60,325 nt of DNA, taken from positions 1-60,325 of the IMG/VR virus record IMGVR_UViG_3300030107_001017. The stretch is one strand, 5' to 3'. Source of the stretch: a virus (lineage: Duplodnaviria > Caudoviricetes). The notes below the pieces were generated by a model. That model had not been told where the DNA came from. It was given only the letters and a program-made list of their open reading frames with translations, and did not search any database. Position numbers and translations under genes: made by a program. This document shows, piece by piece, positions 16,636 through 36,212 of this stretch (positions within the stretch are counted from its first letter, which is position 1; each line of letters opens with the position of its first letter).

Positions 16636-19600
16636 TAATATTTAAGATTCATCAATGGTCGATTGACTGTGCCACCACGAGCATAACCACCGAGTGGTCT
16701 TGAACCTCCAGGCATGGTGGAATCTTTTATCTGCATTCTTCCTCCTGGTTGTCTTATGGGGGCACCTTCTGGGATGCCGTCTATCGCTATTTTTCTTGAA
16801 GTTCCTGTAGTTTCGTTTACGAGCATTACTGAACCGTCGGCTCCTTGAATATATACATCGTCTGGGTGTGGACCACCCTGAATATATCTTCCACCGCCAC
16901 TGACACCTTGAGATTGAGACAATTGTGCACCTTGTGATCTTGGGTCGGGTATGGTGATTGAACGTTGAGGGTTTTCTATTCCTCCAGGAACTTGGGCTTC
17001 AGCTTCTTTTATTCTTCTAGCTAGGTCTTGATACTGAGCGGTTTCCCCTTGTATGTTGGGGTCCAACTTAAAACCTCTGTATGCATGATGGCCTGTGTCC
17101 TGTACACCATAGTCTCCTCTACCCCTAACCTTACCGAGATATTGTCCTACTGATTTTTTACCTAATGTCCCGAGAGCACCTATGCCTGGGATCAAACCAA
17201 CTATGGACAACGCTGACATGATGCTTGGTGCAAGGGCGTCACCATATTGTCCAGCTACTACAGATCTTACTGCGTCTCTGCCATATTTAGCTGCACTGGC
17301 GACATCGGCCGCGAATCCTGCTGGAGTTTCTCCGGCTATTATCTGAGCTATGATGGGGGCTTCTTCGTAGGCTTCTACACCACGGTCTAGTAAATCTTTT
17401 GATTGTCCCCCTTTATCAAAGTATTGAAGGGGCATCATTGGTCTATTATTCACTTCTCCTCCTTTATTCATAAGCACTTTTTGGAATGCTTCGCGTATTT
17501 CGGGAGTCATTTGTATTTCTAAAAATTTGTTGCGGTTATCGTCCGTTATTTGTTTAGCATTGAGTTTAATGCCGTACTCAGCTTCTATTCTTTTTATACC
17601 CTGTCTCGTTTTTTGATCATATTGACGTCCTCTACGAGCGGATGTTTTTCCTGGACTTAATCGGAGACGTGCATCATCATCGCCTAGCTCGTGGCTAAAC
17701 TGCTGCATTCTTGCTGGGGCTGTGCCTTGATCCATACCTGTTTGTCTTTGCAAGGCGTAATCATTAATAGGGAACCAAACAGCATCAATACGAGGGTCTA
17801 CCGCTGCATCATTCATCGACATCTTCATATGCATGGGGAACCAATCTTCAAACATGTGTAACTTCGCGTCACCCGTGTCTTGCTTAACAACCATTGCTTG
17901 TAGGTTAGGAGAGAAGGCTTGTATTGCGGCTTGCTTCATCGTGTTTCTTTCTCGTAGTGCTAATGCTGTTCTACTGTGTTGTTTGTCTATTGGATCGAAT
18001 AAAGCGTGAGCTTCTGAAATACCATCATTGTACTGCTGGTCTGTGATAAAACCTCCCTCTAAATCTGCCGCTAGCTGATCCATTATACGGGATCTTTTAC
18101 GATTTACTTTATCGTAGTCGTAATCCATTCTTTTTACAGCGCGTTGATAGACTTCTTCAGAAGTTAGCTCTCTACCTAATTCTTGGTTATACTCTTTGGT
18201 GTTAAAACCGAACATGTTGTTAATTTGGTTGTTTTGAGTTTCTATGTAGTCCCTGTAGTTTTGTACCTCTTTTTTCCAATCATCGACTGTGTATCCTGGT
18301 TTAAGGTTTGGCTCTACTACTTGATCTAAATACTCTCCGGCATCTGCGTCCATACTTGAGTAATGTCCGGAAGCAGAACGTTGAGTTCCAGAACCACTAA
18401 AGTCCATACCGAAATCGAAATAAGTGTCTTCGGGCCTTGTTGTGCCTAAACGATATGCGATGTCATTACCTCTAACCGTAAAACCAAGCGTTTCCTGAAG
18501 GTTTTCTGCGTTATCACCAGCAGAAATTTTTTGTAAAACTTCGTCTTTTCTTTCAGGTCCTAACATACCGTACATCCCAGATTGGCCCTCGGCTGGGATT
18601 AAAACACGTTTGCCAGGTTCGTTGGGGTTAGTGCCGGAACCGAGAGGAGCCTTTACCTGATACACACCACTGCGTGTATGGAACACACGGTTGACCGCAT
18701 TTGAATCTCTGGGTGTATTTCTTATGTCTAGTGACCGTACCCCTGCGCCAACCTCTGGGTGTCCACCGTCAGGTAATACAAACTCGAACTTTTCTGGTGA
18801 GACGCTTACATTCTTTTCTGTGTATCTTAACAGCGGTAAAGTTCTGGCGGCTTCGGATATGCTTCTGGGGTTTTCGTCTGTGGGAATCATTGGCATATAG
18901 GTGGTGCCGCGCGAAGTGTCCAGTGCGTTTTGATCCTGCCCCCATATGTCAGTTCTTAGTCCGTCATCTACTTCTTCGGATGCTACTTGCATACTTGGTC
19001 TTGAGTCGACTTGCTGATGTATTTTGGGTTTATTGCGGCCGATCTCATCTAATACTTCTTGTAGGGTGGCCTTACCTTCTTTCATCTGCTCTGGGATCCA
19101 CTCATTAAACTGACGCTCAAGGTTCGCACGAGCTGCACCAGGAACAGAGTCTAGTGTGCTTTGTATCAACCCTCTTACGTTGTACTTTTTGTATGGGTTT
19201 TGAAACTGCTTATTATTGAGTATGGACCTTTCGGCCATGGTCTCTATTGTGAATGGTTGACCTGTTATGTCCACTTGGTCCCAATATTCTTCAGGAAAAC
19301 CCTGTTCATATGCGTCTTCTCTTGCTTCGTAGTTGTATGCTGCTCCTCTTGGGCTGGTGTCTTCGATTGTGTATTGTGTGGGGGTGACTCTGAGCTTTGC
19401 GGCTTGTTCTCTTAAAAAATCAGTACCTTTCCTAGTCACTGAACCAGGGACAAAGGGCAATGCGCCAAGGGCCGCGATCCCTGTTCCAATGTACGGCGAC
19501 CCTCCTTCAGTGGCTAGGTGATAACCTTCACGGATACCTTCTATGTCCCCGTAACCAGGGATCATGTCTATTGTGTCGACTATTCCTTGGGAGAGGCGAT

Positions 19601-19703
19601 TGGCTCGGTAGCGATCGTCCATGTAACCGAAAACATTCTCCGCGATCCACTGCTTGCGTTTTTCAGACGGCGAAGGCTCATACGGTAAGATTTGTGTAGC
19701 CAT
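16635..19703 (-). CDS. Large polyvalent protein with two pre-toxin-TG-like hairpins
   Basis: DMIPGYGD...AALGALPFVPG at the N-terminus and a second GETPAG...SIVGLIPGIG. Each module ends in a GGxVN(N)RPxMxLxY motif. Confidence 0.6.
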   Translation of the reverse strand: MATQILPYEPSPSEKRKQWIAENVFGYMDDRYRANRLSQGIVDTIDMIPGYGDIEGIREGYHLATEGGSPYIGTGIAALGALPFVPGSVTRKGTDFLREQAAKLRVTPTQYTIEDTSPRGAAYNYEAREDAYEQGFPEEYWDQVDITGQPFTIETMAERSILNNKQFQNPYKKYNVRGLIQSTLDSVPGAARANLERQFNEWIPEQMKEGKATLQEVLDEIGRNKPKIHQQVDSRPSMQVASEEVDDGLRTDIWGQDQNALDTSRGTTYMPMIPTDENPRSISEAARTLPLLRYTEKNVSVSPEKFEFVLPDGGHPEVGAGVRSLDIRNTPRDSNAVNRVFHTRSGVYQVKAPLGSGTNPNEPGKRVLIPAEGQSGMYGMLGPERKDEVLQKISAGDNAENLQETLGFTVRGNDIAYRLGTTRPEDTYFDFGMDFSGSGTQRSASGHYSSMDADAGEYLDQVVEPNLKPGYTVDDWKKEVQNYRDYIETQNNQINNMFGFNTKEYNQELGRELTSEEVYQRAVKRMDYDYDKVNRKRSRIMDQLAADLEGGFITDQQYNDGISEAHALFDPIDKQHSRTALALRERNTMKQAAIQAFSPNLQAMVVKQDTGDAKLHMFEDWFPMHMKMSMNDAAVDPRIDAVWFPINDYALQRQTGMDQGTAPARMQQFSHELGDDDARLRLSPGKTSARRGRQYDQKTRQGIKRIEAEYGIKLNAKQITDDNRNKFLEIQMTPEIREAFQKVLMNKGGEVNNRPMMPLQYFDKGGQSKDLLDRGVEAYEEAPIIAQIIAGETPAGFAADVASAAKYGRDAVRSVVAGQYGDALAPSIMSALSIVGLIPGIGALGTLGKKSVGQYLGKVRGRGDYGVQDTGHHAYRGFKLDPNIQGETAQYQDLARRIKEAEAQVPGGIENPQRSITIPDPRSQGAQLSQSQGVSGGGRYIQGGPHPDDVYIQGADGSVMLVNETTGTSRKIAIDGIPEGAPIRQPGGRMQIKDSTMPGGSRPLGGYARGGTVNRPLMNLKY

Positions 19704-19749
19704 AAAAAATTTTGCAAAAAATTTTGGAATAGGTCTTTTATCTCGTCCT

Positions 19750-19778
19750 AGTGTAGTTCACGGTCTGAAAAAAGTAAA
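19750..19778 (-). promoter_or_regulatory. Promoter for the packaging/structural operon
   Basis: TTTACT-N17-TACACT. Confidence 0.6.
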
Positions 19779-19909
19779 ATCCTATTCCAGTGTATCTGAA
19801 AAACTTAGCCTTTAGTAGTTACTATTAGCGTTAACGTATAAGGGGGCAGGGGGTCCATCGGATCGGAAGTTGGGTGGTGGTCAAAAAAGCAAGTTCAGAC
19901 GGTGGTCGT

Positions 19910-19938
19910 AAAAAAGCCACCGCCAACTTGGCGGTGGC
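19910..19938 (-). terminator. Intrinsic terminator
   Basis: GCCACCGCC(AA)/(TT)GGCGGTGGC hairpin plus T6 after ORF 19956..20195. Confidence 0.85.
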
Positions 19939-19955
19939 CCACGGGACGGGACCCG

Positions 19956-20195
19956 CTACTTAGTAGCGGGGGATTCTAAGGTGATGAAGCCCTTAGCGAT
20001 ATCGTACTTGATATCGGCGGCGTTAACGAGGCGGGATTCTAGCGCAGCGCGGACCGTTTGACCGTTGAGCGTAGTATGACGGTCGGCGTTATGCTGAGCG
20101 CGAGCTACCTTACCGGTAGCGGTGTAGATAGCGTTGAGGTCAAGATTGCCGCTATTGATTTTGACGGCAGGTTTTTTATTAGCTTTAGTAGACAT
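19956..20195 (-). CDS. Small basic protein, DIKYD-domain paralogue 1
   Basis: Aligns with 23319..23621 and with the C-terminus of 28478..29065; has its own promoter and terminator. Confidence 0.85.
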   Translation of the reverse strand: MSTKANKKPAVKINSGNLDLNAIYTATGKVARAQHNADRHTTLNGQTVRAALESRLVNAADIKYDIAKGFITLESPATK

Positions 20196-20244
20196 ATTTA
20201 AATTCCTAAGTTAGTTAATGACTTACTACCTAAGTAGTGAAACT

Positions 20245-20331
20245 ATTATCTCTTAAGTAAAGTTAGAAGTAAAGCACCGTGTCATACTGTTTAGTTATAA
20301 ACATATAACTAGAAGTAAAGTTAAAAGTAAA
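20245..20331 (-). promoter_or_regulatory. Tandem promoters with repeated TTTACTT boxes
   Basis: TTTACT-N17-GATAAT (20273-20245). A second pair of TTTACTT boxes lies at 20313-20331 with a weaker -10. Confidence 0.65.
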
Positions 20332-20338
20332 CCTAAAA

Positions 20339-20817
20339 TCAGATCACAACGCCTGTTTAATAATTCAGATCACACTGCCATCGCAATCGGACCATGCACA
20401 ACGGATCATGGTTTACAGAAGATTACGCATGATCACATTGCGATCAGACTTCGGACTTCTGATCATGCGCCATGGGCCAGGAGCCATGGTGCGATCAGAT
20501 CATGTAAAAAGGTTCATGGCTTACAGAGGATTATGATGGCAAATAACAACGGATTTATTCTTACAGAGGATCATGGTCCAAGGTATAATAGAACAGGGAC
20601 CATGTTCTATTGGCTTATTGACCACCACCCCCAGATCTGATGATCATGGTGCTTGTTCCAGGGACTTTTGTCCGTAGCACAAGGACGGATCAAAAGTAGG
20701 TTCTATATATAGTGTCACAATTCTGATAAATATCGTTCTAAAAGTCTTTCAGACGTTTTATGTCGACTATCTACTGTTACCAGCACAGTACCACGAACCA
20801 CGTTCCATGGTCCATAT
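20339..20817. repeat. Degenerate short-repeat array rich in GATC and CATG
   Basis: 12 GATC and 11 CATG counted in 20342-20691; TTACAGARGAT three times; heptamer run TACCACG-AACCACG-TTCCATG-GTCCATA near 20789-20816. Confidence 0.8.
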
Positions 20818-20828
20818 TACATAGTCCC

Positions 20829-20922
20829 AGCTAATAGGTCGCTAATAGGTTAGCCAATAACCACGTTAAAGGGATCTAGATAGAGGGTTCCAGACCTTAC
20901 CCTATTGGCTTATTGGCTATTG
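20829..20922 (+). repeat. Iteron-like element, copy A (candidate origin)
   Basis: AGCTAATA-N5-CTAATA-N6-CCAATAAC-N31-GACC-N4-CCTATTGG-CTTATTG; an inverted copy lies at 43088-43173. Confidence 0.7.
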
Positions 20923-20985
20923 TGAGATATTTTACGAAAACAAAAACGTAAAATTCGTGAGAGCTAATATAGAAACAGCTTACTG

Positions 20986-21246
20986 TTATTCATAGCCCTC
21001 TACCCATTGAAGGAGGGTGGGTTCATCCACAGCAGCGAAGGCTTGACCAGCAGTATCAAATGTTTTATAGGTGCCCCACTTCCTATCTCTATAGTTGTAG
21101 TTTGTGTTATTGAGCAGCACATAGGTTCCATCAGACAATATGGTCAGTGTACGGGTTTCATCAATCACCCAGCTACGTGCTTCTGTCATGGGGTCGATGC
21201 TGTTTAAAACATCGACAGCTCTTTCTATCGTATATTGTTCACTCAT
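20986..21246 (-). CDS. Hypothetical protein
   Basis: Last ORF of the small-gene cluster; coupled to the upstream gene. Confidence 0.7.
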   Translation of the reverse strand: MSEQYTIERAVDVLNSIDPMTEARSWVIDETRTLTILSDGTYVLLNNTNYNYRDRKWGTYKTFDTAGQAFAAVDEPTLLQWVEGYE

Positions 21247-21674
21247 ATTCTATCTCGATCGATGTTCTTCCATCTAAACCTCACATACTCAGTAAGCGCA
21301 GACGACAGGTTACTGCCGTTAAGGCTGACGGCTAAGTACCAGTAATCGTTGAACTCTGGATGAGGTGTCCTAGCTATTTTAATGACATTGTAAATGTCTT
21401 GGTTACCGAGACGGTACACCTGACTACTGTCGTAGACATAGTTCCACTCTAGACCCGCTAGGTATTCTTCATAGCGATCGATTATGCCGTCGTCTTCGCT
21501 AAAGTAGTAGCCAACCTCGTCGATGTCTACGAGTAATTCCTCAAGCAAGCTAACCACACGATTAGTCTCATGAGGAGTGTGGTTGGGGTCTTCCAGTATC
21601 TGCTTGCTTTCTTCTATGTAGGAGGAGACCATTACAGGCCTCCATGTGAAAGTGTCAACTTCTTTGAGTTCCAT
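21243..21674 (-). CDS. Acidic hypothetical protein
   Basis: 143-aa ORF in an operon with Shine-Dalgarno. Confidence 0.7.
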   Translation of the reverse strand: MELKEVDTFTWRPVMVSSYIEESKQILEDPNHTPHETNRVVSLLEELLVDIDEVGYYFSEDDGIIDRYEEYLAGLEWNYVYDSSQVYRLGNQDIYNVIKIARTPHPEFNDYWYLAVSLNGSNLSSALTEYVRFRWKNIDRDRI

Positions 21675-21676
21675 AT

Positions 21677-21883
21677 TTATTCCTTATACTTAAAGCCGAA
21701 AGGCTGATCAATTTGAGTAAGGCCGAGAGCTTCAATAATTACACTTTGAGCATGCTCTAGCTGTTCGTTACCGTTAGGCGTGAGGTTCTCTATTATGAGT
21801 TTTACAGCTTCCGGAACTGCGTTAGGATTTAGTTGAAGGTCTTTATAAACTTCCCACTGCATGGACTGATTATCTTTAGGCAT
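21677..21883 (-). CDS. Hypothetical protein
   Basis: Shine-Dalgarno AAGGGGG; operon packing. Confidence 0.7.
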   Translation of the reverse strand: MPKDNQSMQWEVYKDLQLNPNAVPEAVKLIIENLTPNGNEQLEHAQSVIIEALGLTQIDQPFGFKYKE

Positions 21884-21931
21884 TTTGCCCCCTTAGTTAT
21901 TTAACTTAACTAAGTATAAGGGCGAACGTAT

Positions 21932-22147
21932 TCAATCCTTAGCAACGTTCTTATTATTGGGGTGTTCACCGTAATAGTCTATCACAAACTGATCAATGGA
22001 AGCTGGCAACCCTTTGAGCAATACCTCATTCTTCCACTCTTCAGGTTGGTGAAGGCTCGTAACAGTAAAACGTAAACCGTGCTTGTCTGCCAACTCTAGC
22101 ACACGGTCCACTTTCTTATCATCAATATTATTTAGCGTGAGTTCCAT
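21932..22147 (-). CDS. Hypothetical protein
   Basis: AGGAG Shine-Dalgarno; operon packing. Confidence 0.65.
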   Translation of the reverse strand: MELTLNNIDDKKVDRVLELADKHGLRFTVTSLHQPEEWKNEVLLKGLPASIDQFVIDYYGEHPNNKNVAKD

Positions 22148-22338
22148 GGTTTGTCTCCTTCTGGGTTAAGCACAAGTCTTTCTTTGTGAAAGCCATTCCT
22201 GTTCCTGCTGGTTAGACCGAATACTTTTGTCTTTTCACTGAGCGAACGTTCAGTGCTAACACCACCAGGAATCTGTTTTATTTTGCCTCCTTTTTTCAAG
22301 AAGGCTTCGATGTCTTTGTTGATGTCGTCAGAGTCCAC
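22132..22338 (-). CDS. Small protein with a SutA-like IEAFLKKGGKIKQIP motif (possible RNA polymerase binder)
   Basis: The motif resembles the Pseudomonas SutA RNAP-binding helix; recognised by eye only. Confidence 0.5.
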   Translation of the reverse strand: MDSDDINKDIEAFLKKGGKIKQIPGGVSTERSLSEKTKVFGLTSRNRNGFHKERLVLNPEGDKPWNSR

Positions 22339-22569
22339 CTACATACTCCTGTGTTGTTTTTTCCGTTCTTGACTAAAACGACGATACTTAACAGCGTTGT
22401 GCAACGTCACCCAGTCATTGTGGCTCATGGACTTGGCCATTGATAAGATTGGGGTTTTATCGGTAAACCCATACTTCTCCTTCATCTTTTCCCATACGGC
22501 TACGTGCTTATAGTCTTCGTGTAGTCGCGCGTCGTAGTCGCTGAGCTCGGGATAGTTTATGTCATTCAT
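22339..22569 (-). CDS. Hypothetical protein
   Basis: Operon packing. Confidence 0.65.
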   Translation of the reverse strand: MNDINYPELSDYDARLHEDYKHVAVWEKMKEKYGFTDKTPILSMAKSMSHNDWVTLHNAVKYRRFSQERKKQHRSM

Positions 22570-22777
22570 CTTTTTTCCTTGTATCTGTGTAGTCTAGATC
22601 CTCGATGGCACACGTTACTCGGTCAAGCACAGCTGAGCAAGTTTCAGGTTCGTGAGCACATTCGGGGTCAAAGATCTTGAGCGTGTTATTCATTATAGCA
22701 TCGGCGATGAGCACTAACTCATCCATGTTAAACGAAACCTCTATTTTTCCTCCGTCATTCATATCATCAGTCTCCAT
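22562..22777 (-). CDS. Acidic hypothetical protein
   Basis: Operon packing; AGGAG Shine-Dalgarno. Confidence 0.65.
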   Translation of the reverse strand: METDDMNDGGKIEVSFNMDELVLIADAIMNNTLKIFDPECAHEPETCSAVLDRVTCAIEDLDYTDTRKKDE

Positions 22778-22979
22778 TATTCAAGCTCCTACATTCCCAG
22801 AAAAGCACTGAGAACCAAGCGGTCCATAAGGATAAATTGATAATCACGATAGTGAAAGGAGACCAATCAGTCTCCGTGTTTAAGTAATAGCTGACCCCGC
22901 CACTAGCGGAGGCCGTAACAGCCACCGTCAGTAACAGGAAAACAACCACGGTAAGTAAGTGTCTAACAACCCAGCTCAT
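22767..22979 (-). CDS. Small two-TM membrane protein
   Basis: Two hydrophobic segments. Confidence 0.65.
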   Translation of the reverse strand: MSWVVRHLLTVVVFLLLTVAVTASASGGVSYYLNTETDWSPFTIVIINLSLWTAWFSVLFWECRSLNNGD

Positions 22980-23194
22980 GCGTCGTCCTTGACGATGCTA
23001 CGGTTGAGGTGAGAAGCTAGAAATCGCATGGGTAAAACCTTCACGTCTGCGCAAACGTCGCAACAGCGACCCTCGTCAGCCATGGGCCACGGGTCATTAC
23101 CCGTAGTCCAGTAAACCTTACCCTCAGCAGTGCGTTTATGCTCAATAGGGCCGTCGCATAAACAGCAGGTTAAAACTTCATGTACATCAGTCAT
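22976..23194 (-). CDS. Zn-finger hypothetical protein
   Basis: CCLC...GNDPWP...GRCCDVC. Confidence 0.7.
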   Translation of the reverse strand: MTDVHEVLTCCLCDGPIEHKRTAEGKVYWTTGNDPWPMADEGRCCDVCADVKVLPMRFLASHLNRSIVKDDA

Positions 23195-23273
23195 ACGTGC
23201 TCCTAGTAATTAACTATAACTAGGTTACTAACGATCACCGTTAGTCCCTAGGAACGTTCTTTATAATGGGTAT

Positions 23274-23312
23274 AAAAAAGGCCCAGTGACGCAAGGGGTC
23301 GTCAACTGGGCC
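23274..23312 (-). terminator. Intrinsic terminator
   Basis: GGCCCAGT(T)GAC...GTCACTGGGCC hairpin plus T6 after ORF 23319..23621. Confidence 0.8.
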
Positions 23313-23318
23313 AAGGGG

Positions 23319-23621
23319 CTAAGGCATCATATACATGAAGCCTTTCTTCAAATCGTAACGAATGTCACGAGAGTCAACTAGTCGGGTAGCTAGTGCTTCC
23401 CTTATTGTCTTACCGTCTAGTGACTTATGACGCTCAGCATTGTGCGTAGCACGAGCTGTCTTCTCAGGGTTATCTTTTAAAACCGCGTCAAGGTTAAGAC
23501 CACCGGAGTTAACTTTGGCAGTCGTGGTGCTCGCTATGTCGCCTAAAGATTTAGACGCCTTAGGAGCGGTTGGTGCAGTCGCCTTAGGACTAGCTTTTTT
23601 GGCTGTAGTAGACTTAGTCAT
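23319..23621 (-). CDS. Small basic protein, DIKYD-domain paralogue 2, with an AKP-rich N-terminal tail
   Basis: KVNSGGLNLDA...ARATHNAERH..LDGKTIREAL..RLV...DIRYDLKKGF. Confidence 0.85.
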   Translation of the reverse strand: MTKSTTAKKASPKATAPTAPKASKSLGDIASTTTAKVNSGGLNLDAVLKDNPEKTARATHNAERHKSLDGKTIREALATRLVDSRDIRYDLKKGFMYMMP

Positions 23622-23672
23622 CTAACCATCTTCCTTTGTTACGGGTCACCTTAATTAGTAACCTTGCAAACT

Positions 23673-23701
23673 AGTATATAGTGAAGTAAAGCGAAGTAAA
23701 G
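23673..23701 (-). promoter_or_regulatory. Promoter with tandem CTTTACTT
   Basis: TTTACT-N16-TATACT with a second CTTTACTT in the spacer. Confidence 0.65.
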
Positions 23702-23707
23702 TTATAA

Positions 23708-23881
23708 TTAAGCATGATCAAGTTTTCTTTTTGTCCACTCTTCCCAAACTTTGACTGCTGTAATTCGATCAAGGTCAAAAAAATCTTGTAGCACTTTAGG
23801 TGCACCAAACATGTTGATAGAGCCAGATTCTTTGAGTTCGTCTAAAAACTGCAACAGCTCTTGTTTCTCTTTTTCTTCCAT
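23708..23881 (-). CDS. Conserved small phage protein
   Basis: FLDELKESGSINMFGA motif; start re-assigned to MEEKEK using the AGGAGG Shine-Dalgarno. Confidence 0.75.
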   Translation of the reverse strand: MEEKEKQELLQFLDELKESGSINMFGAPKVLQDFFDLDRITAVKVWEEWTKRKLDHA

Positions 23882-23882
23882 T

Positions 23883-24020
23883 TTAGAACCTCCTGTATGT
23901 AATGGCATCTTGAATGTATTCGTAAATATAATAACCCACTAAACCCCAAACTCCTGCAATAACGCACCACTTGAACAGAAACCACGGAAGCGTCAGAACA
24001 AACCATAGAATATCGATCAT
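23883..24020 (-). CDS. 45-aa membrane peptide (not in ORF track)
   Basis: MIDILWFVLTLPWFLFKWCVIAGVWGLVGYYIYEYIQDAITYRRF; AGGAG Shine-Dalgarno; ATGA overlap with the upstream gene. Confidence 0.7.
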   Translation of the reverse strand: MIDILWFVLTLPWFLFKWCVIAGVWGLVGYYIYEYIQDAITYRRF

Positions 24021-24217
24021 ACTTCTTCTCCTTCTTTAAATGTATCTTCTAACTTGTCAGACATCAAAAAGGCAACAGTTTTGCCAGAAACTATGAGCCA
24101 ACCGTTAGGACTAACTTCGTACACGTTTTCACCTATGAATGTTCTTTCCTCAAAGTATGCCTCGAGGAAAAAATCTAAGTCGTCAAAGGTGTCAAACTTG
24201 ACTGTGTTAAACTTCAT
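24017..24217 (-). CDS. Hypothetical protein
   Basis: Operon packing. Confidence 0.65.
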   Translation of the reverse strand: MKFNTVKFDTFDDLDFFLEAYFEERTFIGENVYEVSPNGWLIVSGKTVAFLMSDKLEDTFKEGEEV

Positions 24218-24785
24218 CGTCGCGCGTCACCTCACCGTTGAAGTTATCGTCTTCATCAACGAAACGCCAGCGCATCTCAAGGTCTTTGTCGAATCCTGGC
24301 TGAGACAGGTAAACCATAAGCGCACGCATAATAGGCCGAGGCTCCATCCACGCTGTAAAAAACGTATAGGTAATCTGGTTACGGAGCTCATCTACAGCGG
24401 TCAGCTTATACTCTACTTCGTAAGCATTCCACTTAGTACCCCAGTTTTGTACGCACCAGTCGTACCACTTAGCTGTACCGTATTGACGCTCAAGGCGTTT
24501 TATCGTAAAAGAGTCTAGACCGTGCTTTTCTACCCACTCTAGTCGTGGAAAGTCAAAAGGTTTTTTATCAAGGTTACAATCAGCAGAGCTGTGCCACTTA
24601 GTAGCCGAATAATAGTGGGTAGTGCCGCCTGAGTCGAGATACTGTACGTCGTTAAGCTCTTCAGGCATGGGGACTAGTTGGTTAAAGTCGAACAAGGTGT
24701 CCTCATTAGCTAGAAACTCCATGATATTTAGGATATCAACAGAGCACGAGCGTATGGTCACTTGATTAGAGCAATGGTTGGGCAT
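24207..24785 (-). CDS. YubB/DUF1281-like ferredoxin-fold protein
   Basis: MPNHCSN...FDFNQLVPMPEEL...WYDWCVQNWGTKWN...FFTAW.EP. Confidence 0.8.
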   Translation of the reverse strand: MPNHCSNQVTIRSCSVDILNIMEFLANEDTLFDFNQLVPMPEELNDVQYLDSGGTTHYYSATKWHSSADCNLDKKPFDFPRLEWVEKHGLDSFTIKRLERQYGTAKWYDWCVQNWGTKWNAYEVEYKLTAVDELRNQITYTFFTAWMEPRPIMRALMVYLSQPGFDKDLEMRWRFVDEDDNFNGEVTRDDEV

Positions 24786-24812
24786 ACGAGCCTCCTTAGT
24801 ATTAATATAATA

Positions 24813-25409
24813 CTACTTTAAAGGCCCACGCTTTTTATCTATAGGAACTATCTTATTATTCTTAACAAGGTAGCGTTCTTGTTTTCTTTTATTTTGTAGC
24901 CTGCTACGAGGACTCCAATAATCTCCAGGACCAGCTACTGAACCAGAACCATTCCACAGTGACCAACTGCCGCCTCTATTGCCGCCTCTTTTGCTTGGTT
25001 TTATCCCGAGGTGTTCGTGTATTTTTAGACGTCTTTTATTGTACTCCGTGATGTCTTTTATGCCGACTGCTTTCAAGTTTTGTAAAAATTTATGGTGCTT
25101 TCTTTGGGAATACTCTTTTTGATATGTTTTTGCTGCCTCTTTTAAGACTGCAAAAATTTTGGTGATGTCCTCTACAACACGCCAGTCGTCAGCATTATTT
25201 TCTGCAGCTTCGTAGACGCCTTCTGGAAGATTACAGATAGGTATGCCACCGTATCCAACCGAATCGGGCCATGAGTCATGATCATCCGGGGAAACTGGCG
25301 GTGGTTTTTTGGTCGTGGTGTTACGGTAACAGCCTGTAGAGCAGTAATTTCCCATTCCTTCGCCAAGATTATATTTTGTACCACAAACAACACATGTTTT
25401 AACTTCCAT
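24813..25409 (-). CDS. Hypothetical protein with an N-terminal Zn finger and basic C-terminus
   Basis: CVVCG...YCSTGC. Confidence 0.65.
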   Translation of the reverse strand: MEVKTCVVCGTKYNLGEGMGNYCSTGCYRNTTTKKPPPVSPDDHDSWPDSVGYGGIPICNLPEGVYEAAENNADDWRVVEDITKIFAVLKEAAKTYQKEYSQRKHHKFLQNLKAVGIKDITEYNKRRLKIHEHLGIKPSKRGGNRGGSWSLWNGSGSVAGPGDYWSPRSRLQNKRKQERYLVKNNKIVPIDKKRGPLK

Positions 25410-25437
25410 TAAAACACTCCAGCGGTGGAATTAGCCC

Positions 25438-25559
25438 TTTGTATGAAAACCCGAGCTGGATTGGCCCTAGCTCAGTCGCGGTGTCGGGCGTCACACACAT
25501 TCCACCTGGATACGCCACCTGGAGATACCGCAGCGTTAGGAAGACAACCGCTCTACAAA
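25438..25559. ncRNA. Candidate multi-branched structured RNA
   Basis: Intergenic; closing stem TTTGTA/TACAAA enclosing three hairpins. Confidence 0.5.
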
Positions 25560-25565
25560 TACTGT

Positions 25566-25796
25566 TCATTTTTCTTTCTCATCATCTACTACTAAAACCT
25601 CTTCTAATATTCCTTTTGCGTTTACCCTGATTGAGTGAGAGAGTGCATCCTTAAACACAGCGTGAAAAACCTTACTCGCTTCTTCAATCGTGTAGGGTTT
25701 TTGACCATACTCGTCTCGCTCCTCAGAGTTTAAGACAAACCATTTTTGAAAGTTCTCGTCGTAGGATAAGTTATTGTTATACTTAAAGTTTTCCAC
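25566..25796 (-). CDS. Hypothetical protein
   Basis: GTG start with AGGAGG; YNNNLSYDENFQKWF..NSEER motif. Confidence 0.7.
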   Translation of the reverse strand: MENFKYNNNLSYDENFQKWFVLNSEERDEYGQKPYTIEEASKVFHAVFKDALSHSIRVNAKGILEEVLVVDDEKEK

Positions 25797-25822
25797 AGAA
25801 CCTCCTTTTAGCTTATACTTAA

Positions 25823-25851
25823 ACCATAGGTTGCGGCTATTTGAAAGTAAA
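25823..25851 (-). promoter_or_regulatory. Sigma70-like promoter
   Basis: TTTACT-N17-TATGGT. Confidence 0.6.
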
Positions 25852-25934
25852 CTAAAAGTTTAGGAATCTAGGGAACAGCCCGTTGAGACCACTGGTGGGC
25901 TAACCCAGGATGGAAAGGATGACTAATCCTCGGT

Positions 25935-26402
25935 CTAATGCTCTTCGTATTCCCCCTCTATCAAAGTTCCGGGAGGAAGAACCCCGCCTGTCTCATGATA
26001 TAATTCTTGCATCCGTGCTAGGACTTCATCCTTTGACATAGTGTCTACTCTGTTAACAGTTAGTTCACTCCTGTTAACGTAAAGACCCGCTGCCTTACCC
26101 CTAGCCACTTCAGCAGTTACCGCAGCGGACCACGCTCCATTGCGCATGGCTCCGTCACGAATCTCTTTTAGGTCAACTAGGTGAGTACCGAGAGTGAGTT
26201 CTGCTTTGTCAGCAGCTTTAGTTTGCAGTTCGTGTATGCGGTTTTTGACCAGAGGGTTTTGATCACTAGACAACACAGTCCCAGCTCTACCTGCATTCTT
26301 TTCGCTGTACCCTGCTTGCTGAGCAGCGTCTTTTTTACGCATACCTTTAGCAACGTTCTGAGCAAACTTTTCTTGCTTAGGTGTCAGCTTTTTCTCACTC
26401 AT
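25935..26402 (-). CDS. terS: Terminase small subunit-like HTH protein
   Basis: LTPKQEKFA...AAQQAGYSEKNA...NPLVKNRIHEL. Confidence 0.7.
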   Translation of the reverse strand: MSEKKLTPKQEKFAQNVAKGMRKKDAAQQAGYSEKNAGRAGTVLSSDQNPLVKNRIHELQTKAADKAELTLGTHLVDLKEIRDGAMRNGAWSAAVTAEVARGKAAGLYVNRSELTVNRVDTMSKDEVLARMQELYHETGGVLPPGTLIEGEYEEH

Positions 26403-26644
26403 TCTTTTCTCCAGACTTTTACAACATAGTCGTTAGGAGGAATCTCTATTTTTCTAGTGACAAATTTTTTATTGTTTCTTCTGCCATAGTTACAGGCAGC
26501 AACTCTCAATCGTTGTACGTCTCCAGGTTCACAGTCTTCAATAGTGAAGTGCTGTCCCACACTCATCTTATGAAAATCATACTTATTATTTCTAGGCATG
26601 ACTTCAGGTATGGGTGTACCTTCTTCAATGGGTGATACTTTCAT
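26399..26644 (-). CDS. Small putative DNA-binding protein
   Basis: IEEGTPIP...KYDFHKMSVGQHF...KKFVTR...VKVWR. Confidence 0.7.
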   Translation of the reverse strand: MKVSPIEEGTPIPEVMPRNNKYDFHKMSVGQHFTIEDCEPGDVQRLRVAACNYGRRNNKKFVTRKIEIPPNDYVVKVWRKE

Positions 26645-26654
26645 AGGCTCCTTA

Positions 26655-27023
26655 TTAAGTAGTAACTAAAGTTAGGTCAGGTTTCTTGGGTTGTGCTGGG
26701 GGAACTTTTTCAAATGAATCCCAAAGATGCATATCACAGTCAATTATGACACTTGACAGCTCTGGAAAATAAATAGTGATTCTCATGTGTGGCTCACACG
26801 GTTTACCAGCCTTGTGCTCGTGTATCATAAGCTCTCTAGCCGGAAAATAAATTTCGTCAAATTTGCGGTAACCCATTGATTTTATTTTCTTTTTAGCGTC
26901 TTTCTTTAAGCGTTTGAGATCTAAGCGTCTGTTAAAACCTTTTCTGTCGGCAACTTGTTGTATTGTTTCTATGTCTTTCCAGACAAGCCTCTTCATATCA
27001 GACAGGCTATTTTCCATGATCAT
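26655..27023 (-). CDS. Hypothetical protein
   Basis: AGGAG Shine-Dalgarno; own promoter. Confidence 0.7.
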   Translation of the reverse strand: MIMENSLSDMKRLVWKDIETIQQVADRKGFNRRLDLKRLKKDAKKKIKSMGYRKFDEIYFPARELMIHEHKAGKPCEPHMRITIYFPELSSVIIDCDMHLWDSFEKVPPAQPKKPDLTLVTT

Positions 27024-27051
27024 ACAACTCTCCTTATTTATATAAAGGTTA

Positions 27052-27080
27052 ACTTTAATTAACTTATAAAAAATAATAAA
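27052..27080 (-). promoter_or_regulatory. Sigma70-like promoter
   Basis: TTTATT-N17-TAAAGT. Confidence 0.5.
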
Positions 27081-27093
27081 GCATAGATGCTTA

Positions 27094-27516
27094 TTATGCT
27101 AGATGTTGATCTTCTATTATTCTTTTTCTTAGGCTCGTTGAAGAAAATCCATGCTCTCTTTTATTATAGTACAAGGTGCCATCTTCTATGCTACAAAGTG
27201 CGCTACCTGTGAAGTTTCTACCAGAATAATCTTGACCGATTATTCTGATGTCCCACCGCACAGTCTTTAGAATGTCTAGCAGTTCTTCTTCAGTGTTGTA
27301 TAGAATAATTTCATCAACGTATCTGCAACCTCTGAGCTGAACTTGTCTTTCGACTATGCTCTGCACTGGTCTATTTTTAGTCGTAGGTCTATCTATTGTA
27401 GGGTCACTTTGTAACCCTACAATCAAATAGTCACAAACAGTTTTTGCTTCCTCAAGCATGAACACATGCCCAGCATGAAAAAGATCAAAAGAACCAAAAG
27501 TGATTCCTATCTTCAC
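27094..27516 (-). CDS. TagD-like glycerol-3-phosphate cytidylyltransferase
   Basis: TFGSFDLFHAGH (HxGH), LIVGLQSD, YVDEI, GQDY, SSTSLR. Confidence 0.85.
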   Translation of the reverse strand: MKIGITFGSFDLFHAGHVFMLEEAKTVCDYLIVGLQSDPTIDRPTTKNRPVQSIVERQVQLRGCRYVDEIILYNTEEELLDILKTVRWDIRIIGQDYSGRNFTGSALCSIEDGTLYYNKREHGFSSTSLRKRIIEDQHLA

Positions 27517-27698
27517 TAGGCCATGTCCTCATAACGACCATCAAGCATGGCTGTTATTTCATCTTCAAAGGCGTTTATTTCTTTAAGCACCTCTTGAGTT
27601 TTGTAGTGAGCACCTAATTTAGCCCTGACTATTCCTCGAACTCTGTCGAGTATGTCTTCGTAACCATCGTAAGATTTTATTTCTGTTTTATGTTTCAT
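27516..27698 (-). CDS. Hypothetical 60-aa protein
   Basis: Start re-assigned to MKHKTEI using the GGAGG Shine-Dalgarno. Confidence 0.6.
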   Translation of the reverse strand: MKHKTEIKSYDGYEDILDRVRGIVRAKLGAHYKTQEVLKEINAFEDEITAMLDGRYEDMA

Positions 27699-28401
27699 TT
27701 CCACCTCCGTATAACCAGAATACCAATAAATATCGATCACCGTCTTCCTCAACAGGTAGTCCACGGTGCATGTGTGTAAAGCTAGGAAAGAACAAAGCGT
27801 GACCATTCGGTAATGGTTCTACCGTGGTTCGGCCATGAAACTCAGTGCCACCACCAGTGTAGTTTCCTGTGTTCAGAGGAACAACCATACTGATGTCAGC
27901 AGTTTGATCATGATGCCAAGCCCCCTGCTTTTTATCTTGTATGTTGTAGTTAGCAATCTGTATGCTTGCTGCTGCGTTGCTATACCGTTGCCAAATTGAC
28001 ATAAAGATTGGGTTCATTACATTAAAAACTACGCCAAGCATCGAGTTGAATAACTCAGGGCATTTTTCATGTAAAACGATTTCAGGTATTTGTCTCAGCT
28101 CGTCCTCACCCTCGTTAGGGGCAAAGGAAAACTGAGCCTTCATATTTTCTATTTCATCCAACATTGTGGAGCAAAACTCTTCCGTAAACAAAGGGACTGA
28201 GTATATATCGTGACCATGGTCAGTGACATATTCTTGTAGTATGTTTTCTACACTGAGCTGACCGTCACTTTCCTGAAACGCCTTCAAGCTGTCCATAGAA
28301 TCTCTGGTTAACTCAAGAGTAGTCTTATCAAGCATCCACTCTGCTTTTATGGTTAAAATAAAGTTTTTTACTAGATACGGTGGGGTTGGAGGGGGCTGCA
28401 T
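27688..28401 (-). CDS. 2OG-Fe(II) dioxygenase, lysyl/prolyl-hydroxylase-like
   Basis: PLFTEEFC...WHHD...VPLN..YTGGGTEF...HMHRGLPV..GDRYLLVFW. Confidence 0.85.
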   Translation of the reverse strand: MQPPPTPPYLVKNFILTIKAEWMLDKTTLELTRDSMDSLKAFQESDGQLSVENILQEYVTDHGHDIYSVPLFTEEFCSTMLDEIENMKAQFSFAPNEGEDELRQIPEIVLHEKCPELFNSMLGVVFNVMNPIFMSIWQRYSNAAASIQIANYNIQDKKQGAWHHDQTADISMVVPLNTGNYTGGGTEFHGRTTVEPLPNGHALFFPSFTHMHRGLPVEEDGDRYLLVFWLYGGGNET

Positions 28402-28477
28402 TTACGCTCCACTAAATTCTTTAGGTTAGGTAGGGTAACTATAAGGCTAGTTAAAAACACGCTCCAGCGGCCTTGCA

Positions 28478-29065
28478 TTACGCCAGTATTTCCGCGTATC
28501 CACACTTGATATCGTATTTGATATCAGCTAGTGTTATCTCGGGGTGTTTTTCTAAAATCGTACTGAGCTTAGACCTCCTATACAACGCGAGACGAGCAGC
28601 GTTTTTCTCAGACTTAGGCTGTTTACCTGTTGCTGCTATCTTTGAGCTAGGGTCTATGGTGACTCTGGTGCGCTTAGTTGGTTCTGGTTTTTTCACTGTA
28701 GCGGCCATCTTTTCTCCTGTTTTAGTTTCAGTTTGTTTTTCTTCAGGCTTCCTTAGATGAGCAGCCTTGCCAAAATCTTTTTCTTCTGCGGGTTTCACGA
28801 AAGGTCTAAAATAGTTCCAAAAAATATTGTGGGCTTCTTTTCTACTTTCAAATGTTTTTCTCTCGCCTGTATGCAGTTCGTAAATTTCCGTGGCTTTTTG
28901 TGTAGATAGCCAAGGAGGAGCGGAGTACTTAGCAGGGTCACTAAAGTATGCTGAACCTGCTATCAGGTCACCTATCTTTGAGTTGTCGGTTAAAACTATT
29001 CTAGTCCAGTCGATGCCATCGGGGGTGTTAGCAACAAAAACTAAAGTCTCTACAGGGTCGTGCAT
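28478..29065 (-). CDS. Two-domain protein with C-terminal DIKYD-domain paralogue 3
   Basis: C-terminus ATGKQPKSEKNAAR...LADIKYDIKCGY. Confidence 0.75.
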   Translation of the reverse strand: MHDPVETLVFVANTPDGIDWTRIVLTDNSKIGDLIAGSAYFSDPAKYSAPPWLSTQKATEIYELHTGERKTFESRKEAHNIFWNYFRPFVKPAEEKDFGKAAHLRKPEEKQTETKTGEKMAATVKKPEPTKRTRVTIDPSSKIAATGKQPKSEKNAARLALYRRSKLSTILEKHPEITLADIKYDIKCGYAEILA

Positions 29066-29111
29066 GTGGTCCTCTTAATCTTGTTTCTCGTTTCTTATTT
29101 AACCTGAGTTA

Positions 29112-29140
29112 AGGTTAAAAATCAAGGACAGAAAAGTAAA
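29112..29140 (-). promoter_or_regulatory. Sigma70-like promoter
   Basis: TTTACT-N17-TAACCT. Confidence 0.6.
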
Positions 29141-29174
29141 GGAACAGTGTCAATAAGTTTGACACCGTTCCTTT
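29132..29174 (-). terminator. Hairpin terminator after the DUF932 gene
   Basis: AAAGGAAC-N-GTGTCAA / TTGACAC-N-GTTCCTTT followed by ACTTTT. Confidence 0.7.
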
Positions 29175-29180
29175 GGTGGT

Positions 29181-30209
29181 CTATGCAGCTTCGGCGTACT
29201 CTATTGCCTTGTTCATAGCCTTTTGCTTGAGGGAGGCACGGTTACCGAACCATGCGTTATGGAGGGAAGCGTCGCGGTCATGACCCCACTTATGGTCAAC
29301 CACAAACGTAACAGCATTCATAGCCCCCCACCAAGTACCTTTAGAGGACTTGAGGGTAGCTCCGGGCTGTTCATCTATAGCTTGGTGTACCATGCTAGGG
29401 ATACGCTTAAACTCATCAACCATAGATTGACGGGTAGCGATGGCGCGAGTGTCACTCATCGTTTCTATTTCCTTCTGGGCTTTTAGTAAGTCCGGTTGAA
29501 ACAGGTCAGCGATATAAGTAACGACTGAGTTTTTGTTAAACTTCTTAGAGCTAAGAAACTCTGCGCTTTCTTTAAACTCTTTCATTCTCTCACCCGCTAG
29601 GCCGAGGGCTTCTTCAGCTGCGCCGAAAACCTCACTGTCTAACGCTTTAACATGAGGCATCTTAAACCCTACTCTAGTGCGGTCAGCTAGAGCCATGGTC
29701 AGCGTATTGTTACAAACTACGCGAATGGGCGTAAACCGTATCTCATTAGACTTACCCCACTTATGAGACACGCTCACTAGTAAATAACCCAGCACACGGT
29801 CGTCGCCAGGAAGGGTAAAATCTTTACTGACGTTAGCTAACCCCCACACCTGCTCGCCTCCTTTGAGAGAGCCTGCAGTTTCCATGGTCATTTGGCCAGC
29901 GTCGGTAAACTTTTTGAAAAATTCAAAAGCGTCCCTGTTTTGACTGGGTACGAACCGTTTACCACATGGGCCAAAAGTTTTGTTATCGCTGTCCCTGACT
30001 AACACGTAGTAGTCCTCTACACCGATTAAATCGTTAGAGGCGTTTACGTCGGGGTCCGCGTGTGTAAATAAATGACGCTTACTTACTGTCCAATCAAGCT
30101 CAGCAGCAATCAACATTTCTTCAGGCGTTAGGTTATCCTCAACCTTAACACCCAGGCCATGCCAAGGTACTTCTCCAGCATAAGCCATTGTTTCTACAGC
30201 AGCAACCAT
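29181..30209 (-). CDS. DUF932/DUF945-family (LGT_TIGR03299-like) protein
   Basis: MAYAGEVPWHGLG...QNRDAF...ETAGSL.GG...TPIRVVCNNTL...GTWWGAMNAVT. Confidence 0.9.
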   Translation of the reverse strand: MVAAVETMAYAGEVPWHGLGVKVEDNLTPEEMLIAAELDWTVSKRHLFTHADPDVNASNDLIGVEDYYVLVRDSDNKTFGPCGKRFVPSQNRDAFEFFKKFTDAGQMTMETAGSLKGGEQVWGLANVSKDFTLPGDDRVLGYLLVSVSHKWGKSNEIRFTPIRVVCNNTLTMALADRTRVGFKMPHVKALDSEVFGAAEEALGLAGERMKEFKESAEFLSSKKFNKNSVVTYIADLFQPDLLKAQKEIETMSDTRAIATRQSMVDEFKRIPSMVHQAIDEQPGATLKSSKGTWWGAMNAVTFVVDHKWGHDRDASLHNAWFGNRASLKQKAMNKAIEYAEAA

Positions 30210-32876: not shown

Positions 32877-33557
32877 TTACGCTGCAGCCTCCCTACACAT
32901 ATTTTGTTTACCGAAATAACACCACTTACACTTGAACTTAGAAGGGTTGGCAGGAAACTCTTCAGCCGTGGTCATAGCGAGTGCTCGTTGATTAAGTTTT
33001 TCTTGTTTGGCTTTTATGCTTTGTGGTGTGTAGATATACCTATCTATCTTACCATGGTCCAAGTACCACATTTCTGTCTGGATACTTTCTAGTTCTGGAT
33101 AACGGTTTAATGCTACGGCACCGTAAAGCTCACACTGCTCTCTGTGTGTTTCTTGATTACCGTCGTAACGTCCTGTCTTAAAATCAATAACACGAGCCTC
33201 TTTAGAGATTCCTTCCTCGTACACAAAGGCGTCTACTTTAGCTCTACCCCATGTGTCTTCTTCAAACCAACCAGTTTTCTGCCAGTTTTTATCTACAGCC
33301 CAGTCACTTTCACAAAACACATGGCCGTGAATGTACAAGTCTCTTAGAACTTCAAACGCCTCTTCAAACTCTTTGAGCTGAGAAGGTATCTCTTCGTAAT
33401 TACCTCTGATATATTCTTCACAGAGTTTGTGCATATCCTTTCCTCTATCCATTGCTGGACTTCCAGGTTCTTTTATCTTTTTGATAAACTTAAACTCTGC
33501 TTGTTTAGGGCACTTTTCAAAACAGCTTAGTCGGCTGTAAGACCATTGTTCAATCAT
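32877..33557 (-). CDS. Cas4/RecB-like PD-(D/E)XK exonuclease
   Basis: WSYSRL..FEKCP, KVD, IDFKTG, Q.ELY, C-terminal CKWC...C. Confidence 0.9.
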   Translation of the reverse strand: MIEQWSYSRLSCFEKCPKQAEFKFIKKIKEPGSPAMDRGKDMHKLCEEYIRGNYEEIPSQLKEFEEAFEVLRDLYIHGHVFCESDWAVDKNWQKTGWFEEDTWGRAKVDAFVYEEGISKEARVIDFKTGRYDGNQETHREQCELYGAVALNRYPELESIQTEMWYLDHGKIDRYIYTPQSIKAKQEKLNQRALAMTTAEEFPANPSKFKCKWCYFGKQNMCREAAA

Positions 33558-35844: not shown

Positions 35845-35845
35845 T

Positions 35846-36211
35846 TTAGTTCTCTTTTCTTGTTGATGGAAACTCAGGCTGATCTGGGAACATAGGTTCA
35901 ATTGGTTCTTTTTCCCTTTTTACTAACCGATTTTTAGTTGTATAAGACTCAACTAAAAGAAGATACCTTCTCAGATCTCGTATGTCGTCTAGTATCCCTG
36001 TGTCGCTGGAATCTTGAGAGATTGTGTGGAATATATCCCAACCATCTTTTTTAACCTGATTCTCAATCCTATCCCATTTACGAGCCAGCATCATAAATGC
36101 GCCTACCCCACCACGGTCACGCCAGCTGTCGCCATAGCTTGTTTCTGCTTTCTTCAATTTTTGTACATCTATATCTGCCAATGATTGAATGTCTCTAAAA
36201 TTTGCTGGCAT
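35846..36211 (-). CDS. Nmad1/MazG-like all-alpha nucleotide pyrophosphatase
   Basis: SYGDSW..RGG.G....RKWDRI...DDIRDLRRY. Confidence 0.7.
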   Translation of the reverse strand: MPANFRDIQSLADIDVQKLKKAETSYGDSWRDRGGVGAFMMLARKWDRIENQVKKDGWDIFHTISQDSSDTGILDDIRDLRRYLLLVESYTTKNRLVKREKEPIEPMFPDQPEFPSTRKEN

Positions 36212-36212
36212 A

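Follow-up and report, generated by a model that had tools for sequence, protein, structure and literature searches.

Phage SPO1, which replaces thymine by way of a dUMP hydroxymethylase route, encodes the small basic DNA-binding protein TF1, a member of the HU family that is said, after work by Grove et al. in 1996, to prefer DNA containing hydroxymethyluracil (hmU). Homing endonucleases carry accessory DNA-binding modules of the NUMOD/IENR type, and winged-helix domains, such as that of PriA and those of MarR, ArsR and BlaI, set a three-helix core on a small beta-sheet within about 60 residues. Dinoflagellate/viral nucleoproteins (DVNPs) and dinoflagellate histone-like proteins (HLPs), which are basic, lysine-rich and have relatives in viruses or bacteria, are thought to package the hmU-rich chromatin of dinoflagellates, and the packaging proteins named in the sections covered here of a 2024 genome-wide mapping study of 5-hydroxymethyluracil (5-hmU) include virus-derived ones (PMC11071213). 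Here, we analyse three genes (c1, c2 and c3) of a tailed phage, IMG/VR virus record IMGVR_UViG_3300030107_001017; the window, meaning the stretch of DNA that was analysed, is the whole of that record (60,325 nt, completeness rating 100%). The three genes appear to form a phage-specific family built on an undescribed winged-helix-like module of about 60 amino acids (aa), which on balance we take to bind nucleic acid, most likely DNA.

Nearly all genes of the window lie on the minus strand, as do the three studied here:

19956-20195, minus strand: c1, 79 aa, with a basic tail (residues 1-14) followed by the module (residues 15-79, at 19959-20153)
23319-23621, minus strand: c2, 100 aa, with a tail rich in K, A, S, T and P (residues 1-38) followed by the module (residues 39-100, at 23322-23507)
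28478-29065, minus strand: c3, 195 aa, with an N-terminal domain (residues 1-100, at 28766-29065)
about 28664-28765, minus strand: disordered basic linker of c3, between the N-terminal domain and the module
28481-28663, minus strand: C-terminal module of c3 (residues 135-195)

A first-pass annotation made from the sequence had proposed three paralogues of an unannotated domain, each behind a lysine-rich flexible segment and each with its own promoter. The shared module is borne out by BLASTP, by hhalign and by the topology of AlphaFold models, which agree with one another. BLASTP aligns c1 with c2 at 51% identity over 63 aa (E 4e-23) and with c3 at 30% over 71 aa (E 2e-6), while the match between c2 and c3 is limited to the DI[KR]YD stretch (E 0.003). 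When alignments of orthologues were compared with hhalign, c1 and c2 matched with 99.9% probability (E 7.6e-33) and c2 and c3 with 81.1% (E 1.2e-5). The profile similarity of the third copy, whose lack the first-pass annotation had named as one result that would refute it, is significant (c1 against c3, 96.1%, E 3.4e-9, 64 columns). The flexible segments are likewise basic, with four lysines among the 14 residues of the c1 tail, seven among the 38 of the c2 tail and 12 lysines or arginines among 39 residues of the c3 linker.

Marine metagenomes yielded homologues of c1 (72 of 73 candidates at E ≤ 0.01), c2 (48 of 62 candidates) and c3 (25 of 333 candidates), and no orthologue of any of the three bears an informative name. 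Alignments were built from the window protein and 33 of the 72 homologues for c1 (A2), 23 of the 48 for c2 (A3) and 24 of the 25 for c3 (A1). Phage orthologues share 50-86% identity, and the module carries the signatures T-G-K-x-[AP]-[RK]-[AS]-x-x-N-x-x-R in and before helix 1, G-x-T-V-x-x-A-L in helix 2 and D-[IL]-[KR]-Y-D-[IL]-x-x-G-[FY] across helix 3 and the last strand. Every one of the five records rated 100% complete (G000-G003 and G009) holds exactly three copies. The description of the domain as unannotated held up: c1, c2 and c3 match no family of Pfam-A or PHROGs v4 at E ≤ 0.05 (best E 0.066) and no PDB sequence. Among cultured-phage genomes, neither positions 19500-24000 (megablast) nor c1 (tblastn) found a match, and tblastn of c3 gave a single one at chance level (E 0.1). 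In the ESM Atlas, the protein's own viral cluster alone matched at 0.94, and lower rows serve as leads only.

Related loci show further arrangements of these genes. Two c1-like genes stand head to head in L090 (G003:46101-46800) and L091 (G004:30767-31493), diverging from a common spacer that bears TTTACTT, and two c1-like copies lie in tandem in L007 and L010. The module gene family is thus undergoing local duplication and rearrangement.

Structure prediction and a Foldseek search, both proposed in the first-pass annotation, gave a modelled fold and, at E ≤ 0.001 in the PDB, no characterised family. The AlphaFold model of c1, built on a 59-row alignment (A4), has a mean predicted local distance difference test score (pLDDT) of 89, with strands at residues 23-26 and 71-74 enclosing helices at 34-43, 48-54 and 59-68; residues 1-10 are poorly ordered (pLDDT 56). 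The c3 module (pLDDT about 87) repeats this beta-alpha-alpha-alpha-beta topology, with strands at 142-145 and 191-194 and helices at 153-159, 167-173 and 179-187, and residues 102-134 of the c3 linker score below 50. The predicted topology holds the three-helix bundle and associated beta-sheet of a winged helix, with a non-canonical strand order: winged-helix domains run alpha-beta-alpha-alpha-beta-beta, whereas the module has a strand at either end and, in both c1 and c3, no predicted hairpin wing. A two-copy complex prediction of c1 scored 0.00, a value that gives no verdict on self-association.

Exhaustive structural searches with the c1 model retrieved GATOR1 (Z 4.9) and the PriA winged helix (Z 4.5), followed by RRE, MarR, ArsR, BlaI and Z-alpha domains, and those with the c3 module retrieved FAM91A1 (Z 5.9), GATOR1 (5.4) and the PriA winged helix (4.8), followed by MarR, ArsR, ScpB and Z-alpha. 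Nearly all matches of the two models, retrieved independently, are winged-helix domains, and the weak top match of Foldseek against the PDB is the PriA winged-helix domain on DNA (best E 0.66). As the scores lie under the informative level, we take them as a pointer to fold class only, and they suggest a winged-helix-like module. The N-terminal domain of c3 is predicted to hold three strands and two helices (pLDDT 70-94) and matched no family, in a structural search with whole c3 that aligned mostly to the module and so barely probed this domain. Three proteins (P0095-P0097) carry the linker and module of c3 behind an unrelated N-terminal part; P0156 groups with them, the c3-type N-domain again being swapped and the linker and module kept.

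The family was extended beyond phages by a profile search against 1.84 billion representative proteins, which returned 43 at E ≤ 0.001, 23 of them at E ≤ 1e-10. Three of the 43 (P0171, P0173 and P0174) were rejected as false positives, being YWTD/PKD repeat proteins that add up many tiny scores. In P0177 the module follows an HNH nuclease domain (PF01844, E 8e-7) and in P0163 a T5orf172 domain (PF10544, E 7e-4), that is, at the spot where nucleases carry DNA-binding modules; several other family proteins have the module behind different N-terminal parts. Like a NUMOD/IENR-type module, it is here a small helical unit C-terminal to an HNH or GIY-YIG-type (T5orf172) domain; unlike those modules, to which no sequence relation was detected, it also occurs free-standing, in small proteins of several copies. 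In Pfam, the module portions of the fusions find no match. When the fusions were sought on viral contigs, matches to P0177 spanned the HNH part alone, and P0163 and P0151 gave none.

Among cellular carriers of the module, all those found with a name are dinoflagellates. Two adjacent proteins of Durusdinium trenchii, on a contig of 166 kb, hold three full modules each (E 4.8e-13), and one protein of this species (P0157, three copies) is lysine-rich with a net charge of +58. A Karlodinium veneficum protein (P0165) has two modules (E 2.3e-8), and P0166, with no named source, has four matched stretches (E 4.6e-8). Modules from dinoflagellates and from the T5orf172 fusion have an insertion between helices 2 and 3. 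These proteins resemble DVNPs and HLPs in composition. A Pfam scan of P0157, P0165, P0166 and P0176, in a library copy that may lack a DVNP model, returned no family even at E ≤ 10, and the module proteins have their relatives among tailed phages rather than among the donors that the covered sections of the mapping study name (PMC11071213).

It is because of the nuclease fusions, the repetition of the module in highly basic proteins, the basic tails, isoelectric points near 10 (9.99 for c1 and 10.05 for c2, against a median of 5.33 for the window proteome, n = 80) and the fold class that we lean towards a nucleic-acid-binding module, its ligand most likely being double-stranded DNA. On this reading c1 and c2 would be minimal forms, consisting of a basic disordered tail and the module, while in c3 a disordered basic linker would tie the module to a separate N-terminal domain. 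The first-pass annotation had offered three functions for the family (nucleoid-like DNA coating, reading of a modified base, and anti-defence or host takeover), and DNA binding is the one with the most indirect support.

Several observations weigh against that reading, particularly in the form of simple DNA coating. All structural matches have Z below 8, the noise level of the search tool, and among them are winged helices with peptide or protein ligands (RRE domains, GATOR1, ESCRT-II and RPA32C). Helix 3, the usual recognition helix of winged-helix domains, is acidic in its most conserved stretch (D61 and D65), and the conserved basic residues lie instead on helix 1. Two family members are not basic, namely Gp18 of the marine siphovirus PhiJL001 (isoelectric point 5.25), described below, and the near-neutral Karlodinium protein (6.45). 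The T5orf172 match of P0163 is barely above the cut-off (20.5 bits against 20).

Some of the same observations would suit a module that binds proteins or peptides and acts in host takeover or anti-defence by contacting a host nucleoid protein, RNA polymerase or a defence sensor. The acidic Gp18 and the protein- and peptide-binding winged helices among the matches are in keeping with this, and so is the nature of the proteins, which are small, clade-restricted, present in several copies and set amid many small uncharacterised open reading frames (ORFs). We nevertheless regard such a role as very unlikely, given that no PHROGs anti-defence family is matched, that nuclease fusions and repeats in very basic eukaryotic proteins are hard to square with one bacterial target, and that the level of identity across phages is unlike that of fast-evolving counter-defence genes.

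The transcription signals around the three genes are as follows:

20245-20331, minus strand: c1 promoter region, with two tandem TTTACTT pairs (20313-20331 and 20255-20273), the proximal pair giving TTTACT-17-GATAAT
19905-19941, minus strand: c1 terminator, a fully paired stem of 11 bp (arms 19916-19926 and 19928-19938) with a T-run behind it
23673-23701, minus strand: c2 promoter, with a tandem TTTACTT pair (23684-23700), giving TTTACT-16-TATACT
23274-23312, minus strand: c2 terminator, a G+C-rich hairpin followed by TTTTTT
29134-29174, minus strand: terminator of the DUF932 gene upstream of c3, a hairpin (29138-29174) whose U-rich tail holds CTTTACTT (29134-29141)

Strong terminators had been proposed after c1 and c2, and both proved exceptionally stable, at -28 kcal/mol (z -3.97) for c1 and -22 kcal/mol (z -6.48) for c2, and for both all 200 shuffles folded less stably; after c3 no terminator was found (fold z +1.3). 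Hairpins suspected by eye in the 5′ untranslated regions were rejected as not significant (z -0.17, -1.34 and +0.27). The proposal of a TTTACT promoter for each gene stood for c1 and c2, where the first hexamer of a pair lies 16-17 nt from GATAAT or TATACT; it is weak for c3, whose single TTTACT overlaps the terminator U-tract of the gene upstream and is followed by a poor -10 element. The role of CTTTACTT before c3 as a promoter is therefore ambiguous. In related loci, the hairpin and CCTTTACTT before c3 are kept in L005, CCTTTACAT is found in L008, and L007 has none.

Across both strands of the window, CTTTACTT occurs eight times against 4.9 expected, a count that is not significant, and all six of its minus-strand sites lie upstream of c1, c2 or c3. 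The tandem form TTTACTT-N(3-5)-TTTACTT, in contrast to its expectation of 0.03, occurs three times (twice before c1 and once before c2), a number reached in none of 100 shuffles. Minus-strand TTTACT is enriched outside genes, as nine of its 26 sites fall within the 3,071 intergenic nt that make up 5% of the window; two of these nine stand before genes that lack the module. The arrangement before c1 and c2 recurs before orthologues in related contigs: in L004-L011, 14 of 16 orthologues have one or more TTTACT sites in the 170 nt before them, as do nine of 11 in more distant genomes, counts that include near-duplicate loci.

This pattern could reflect Cro-type autoregulation, in which c1 and c2 would be sequence-specific transcription factors acting on the tandem TTTACTT repeats over their own -35 and spacer regions, and would also bind single sites at other early promoters so as to shut off early transcription or redirect the host polymerase. 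The restriction of the tandem form to c1 and c2, its conservation upstream of orthologues, a repeat spacing of 10-12 nt (about one helical turn), the confinement of intergenic TTTACT sites to 19.7-29.2 kb and the winged-helix repressors among the structural matches all speak for it. However, TTTACTT stands at the correct distance from -10-like hexamers and is thus explained as a -35 element; it also precedes ORF 25796-25566 and the 1022-aa/TerL operon, neither of which has a module gene; the exact tandem form, present in G001 and G003, is absent from G002, G004 and G005; and nuclease fusions and multi-copy dinoflagellate proteins misfit a single fixed operator. We consider autoregulation decidedly unlikely. 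Because those two operons without a module gene are also preceded by TTTACTT, the motif is best read as the -35 box of the phage, its tandem form being special to c1 and c2, and the CTTTACTT repeats are more likely promoter elements of this kind than private binding sites.

Returning to the module as a nucleic-acid binder, c1 and c2 would each be transcribed from their own sigma-70-type promoter with a tandem-duplicated -35 element and closed by a strong intrinsic terminator, a cassette anatomy expected of small, abundantly made architectural or regulatory DNA-binding proteins. The third gene is probably co-transcribed with the 2-oxoglutarate (2OG) oxygenase gene downstream. Directly downstream of c3, with no terminator between, positions 27094-28401 hold this 2OG-Fe(II) oxygenase gene and a cytidylyltransferase-like gene, which may encode additional enzymes for modifying DNA or nucleotides and be transcribed together with c3.

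The first-pass annotation had also placed c1 alone beside a predicted terminus. The gene does stand alone, with 790 non-coding nt upstream and 252 nt downstream. The upstream stretch (20196-20985) contains nine direct repeat families and 14 inverted pairs, with GATC and CCATGG cores, and GATC-rich sequence is also found before c1 orthologues in related contigs; this stretch could be a replication origin or packaging site, and may be what was meant by the terminus. The window record is without end repeats, and the relative G002 has a 123-nt end repeat between c3-like and c2-like genes that may be a mere product of circular assembly. All nine intergenic minus-strand TTTACT sites lie within the small-ORF region at 19700-29200 and none precedes the replication or structural modules, which suggests a distinct early region read by the host polymerase, with another promoter type elsewhere. 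None of the RNA runs listed holds 19700-29200, and three metatranscriptomes of related samples contain next to none of its words.

The DNA that the module might bind is hinted at by the neighbouring genes, which make up a putative thymidine-hypermodification cassette:

33550-37091, minus strand: thymidine-hypermodification cassette, comprising the four genes below
33550-34611, minus strand: thymidylate synthase (TS)-like gene (Thymidylat_synt, E 1.6e-21)
34598-35383, minus strand: TAGT (TET-associated) glycosyltransferase (Pfam, E 9.8e-26)
35383-35901, minus strand: dUTPase (Pfam, E 4.7e-30)
36213-37091, minus strand: PF18723 (HMUDK_hel / aGPT-Pplase1-type; Pfam, E 8.7e-48)

The window also encodes three 2OG oxygenases. 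The PF18723 protein has relatives annotated as aGPT-Pplase1 or as 5-hmdU DNA kinase domain proteins; in M6, according to the sections covered here of a paper on hypermodified-thymidine pathways, the kinase proper is a neighbouring P-loop protein (PMC8989533), and PF18723 therefore serves here solely to mark thymidine hypermodification. PF18723 is present in 11 of the 12 other module-bearing viral records (G001, all five of G002-G006, four of the five of G007-G011, and PhiJL001), the sole record without it being a fragment rated 36% complete. The nearest cultured phages by TerL (HTVC027P, 023Pt_psg01, DSL-LC04 and HTVC023P; 55-61% identity) lack the module, PF18723 and the TS-like gene alike (none of four in each case).

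PhiJL001 provides a cultured comparison. Its Gp18 is the best viral structural match (BFVD) of both the c1 and c3 models, and the C-terminus of gp18, for which no Pfam family was found, matches the module (hhalign 94.8%, E 5.1e-8; profile search of the genome, E 4.1e-6). The gp18 stop overlaps the start of gp19, the PF18723 gene, after which come TAGT, Nmad5 and a TS-like gene whose annotation notes a likeness to the dUMP hydroxymethylase of SPO1. The window cassette is collinear with gp19-gp28 of PhiJL001 (PF18723-TAGT-TS-PolA) at 34-46% identity. By eye, gp18 looked like a full-length counterpart of c3, N-domain included, but hhalign aligned the module alone (37.7%, E 3.4e-4); Foldseek aligned 162 columns (E 1e-4), but with template modelling (TM) scores of 0.27 and 0.34. 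Relatives of gp18 in cultured phages are partial N-terminal matches only. At the position in the window that corresponds to gp18, upstream of PF18723, the ORF at 37073-37540 was tried as a fourth copy and rejected (hhalign 0.07%, BLASTP E 1.2).

One explanation for this setting is that the module reads or organises hmU-type DNA, preferring hmU or its glycosylated or hypermodified derivatives over thymine, such that the phage would have a means to tag, compact or regulate its genome separately from that of its host, and dinoflagellates would use the repeats on hmU-rich chromosomes. The proposal draws on the phage cassette with its PF18723, TAGT, TS-like and dUTPase genes, on the recurrence of PF18723 in other module-bearing records and its joint absence with the module from the TerL relatives, on the overlap of gp18 with gp19, and on the dinoflagellates, whose DNA has abundant 5-hmU and whose packaging proteins include virus-derived ones, as given in the covered sections of the mapping study (PMC11071213). 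An analogous precedent may be seen in TF1 and its hmU-DNA preference: c1 and c2, like TF1, are small, basic and phage-encoded, and are candidate DNA binders in a phage predicted to modify thymidine. Unlike TF1, however, they have no HU/Bac_DNA_binding Pfam match, the predicted fold differs from that of HU, the structural searches retrieved no HU chain, and there are three paralogues here in place of one gene.

The reverse comparison tells against a reader of hmU. When 12 diverse cultured PF18723 phages were sampled from 95 records, only PhiJL001 carried the module, and SPO1-type phages gave no tblastn match. The co-occurrence with hmdU-modification genes, put forward as a check in the first-pass annotation, therefore held in one direction: the association of module with PF18723 is strong, whereas an obligatory pairing of the module with the pathway is not seen (one in 12). 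Since the window and PhiJL001 have a common collinear cassette, the positive records are not independent, and with all of them bearing one homologous cassette the association may amount to one or two evolutionary events. The carriers are, moreover, all marine, such that a common gene pool could explain the distribution, and base modification in the window phage is a prediction from its genes. The module belongs to a single marine branch as an accessory and is no core component of the pathway, and its reading of a modified base, the second function proposed at first pass, has the 11 of 12 records and the gp18-gp19 overlap in its favour and the sampled phages and single cassette against it; we rate it as possible but rather unlikely.

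A more specific form of that proposal, which we hold to be unlikely, is that a domain dedicated to hmU- or glycosyl-hmU-DNA has been exchanged between marine hydroxymethyl-dU phages and dinoflagellates and has roles in both. If this were true, the tandem copies in lysine-rich dinoflagellate proteins would constitute a third class of chromatin protein, related to phage proteins and additional to DVNPs and HLPs, and the three phage paralogues would serve to tell apart and organise the modified genome of the phage. No dinoflagellate 5-hydroxymethyluracil reader protein is named in the portions of the literature that we found; in the covered sections of the mapping study the word ‘reader’ has no occurrences and the roles of histones, DVNPs and HLPs are listed as open (PMC11071213). 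The covered sections of the pathway paper describe the enzymes, with no occurrences of ‘DNA-binding’ or ‘winged’, and its Figure 2 and supplements present metavirome gene clusters in which this clade may already be represented (PMC8989533). No earlier description of the module was found in text searches, which are blind to domain sequence and had supplements outside their scope.

The module is compact, confidently folded and found in three settings (phages with hydroxymethyl-deoxyuridine cassettes, nuclease fusions and lysine-rich dinoflagellate proteins), and is thus a concrete candidate for a comparison of binding to thymine-containing and hmU-containing DNA. Even as a plain DNA-binding domain, it would represent a new family by which well over 100 ‘hypothetical’ cluster representatives could be annotated from abundant marine phages.

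Further observations concern the modification cassettes and other parts of the window. The TS-like gene of G001 (G001:C1:22604-23626) has one in-frame TAA inside its match to the window protein. Two genes upstream of gp18, PhiJL001 gp16 (L097, 10929-11507) matches the N-terminal domain of dATP/dGTP diphosphohydrolase (E 1e-22), a similarity that hints at purine-nucleotide manipulation besides thymidine modification. Three consecutive genes of the window (41240-42878) match Pam3 gp34-, gp33- and gp32-like families, and the gp33/gp34-like pair also occurs in PhiJL001 (28-32% identity), where it heads the common replication and modification cassette. Beside the portal gene, positions 10574-12704 hold five very basic small ORFs (isoelectric points 10.4-11.4), which may encode internal virion or DNA-condensing proteins, and the gap at 12365-12506 contains a direct repeat that resembles a Lys/Gly-rich coding unit.

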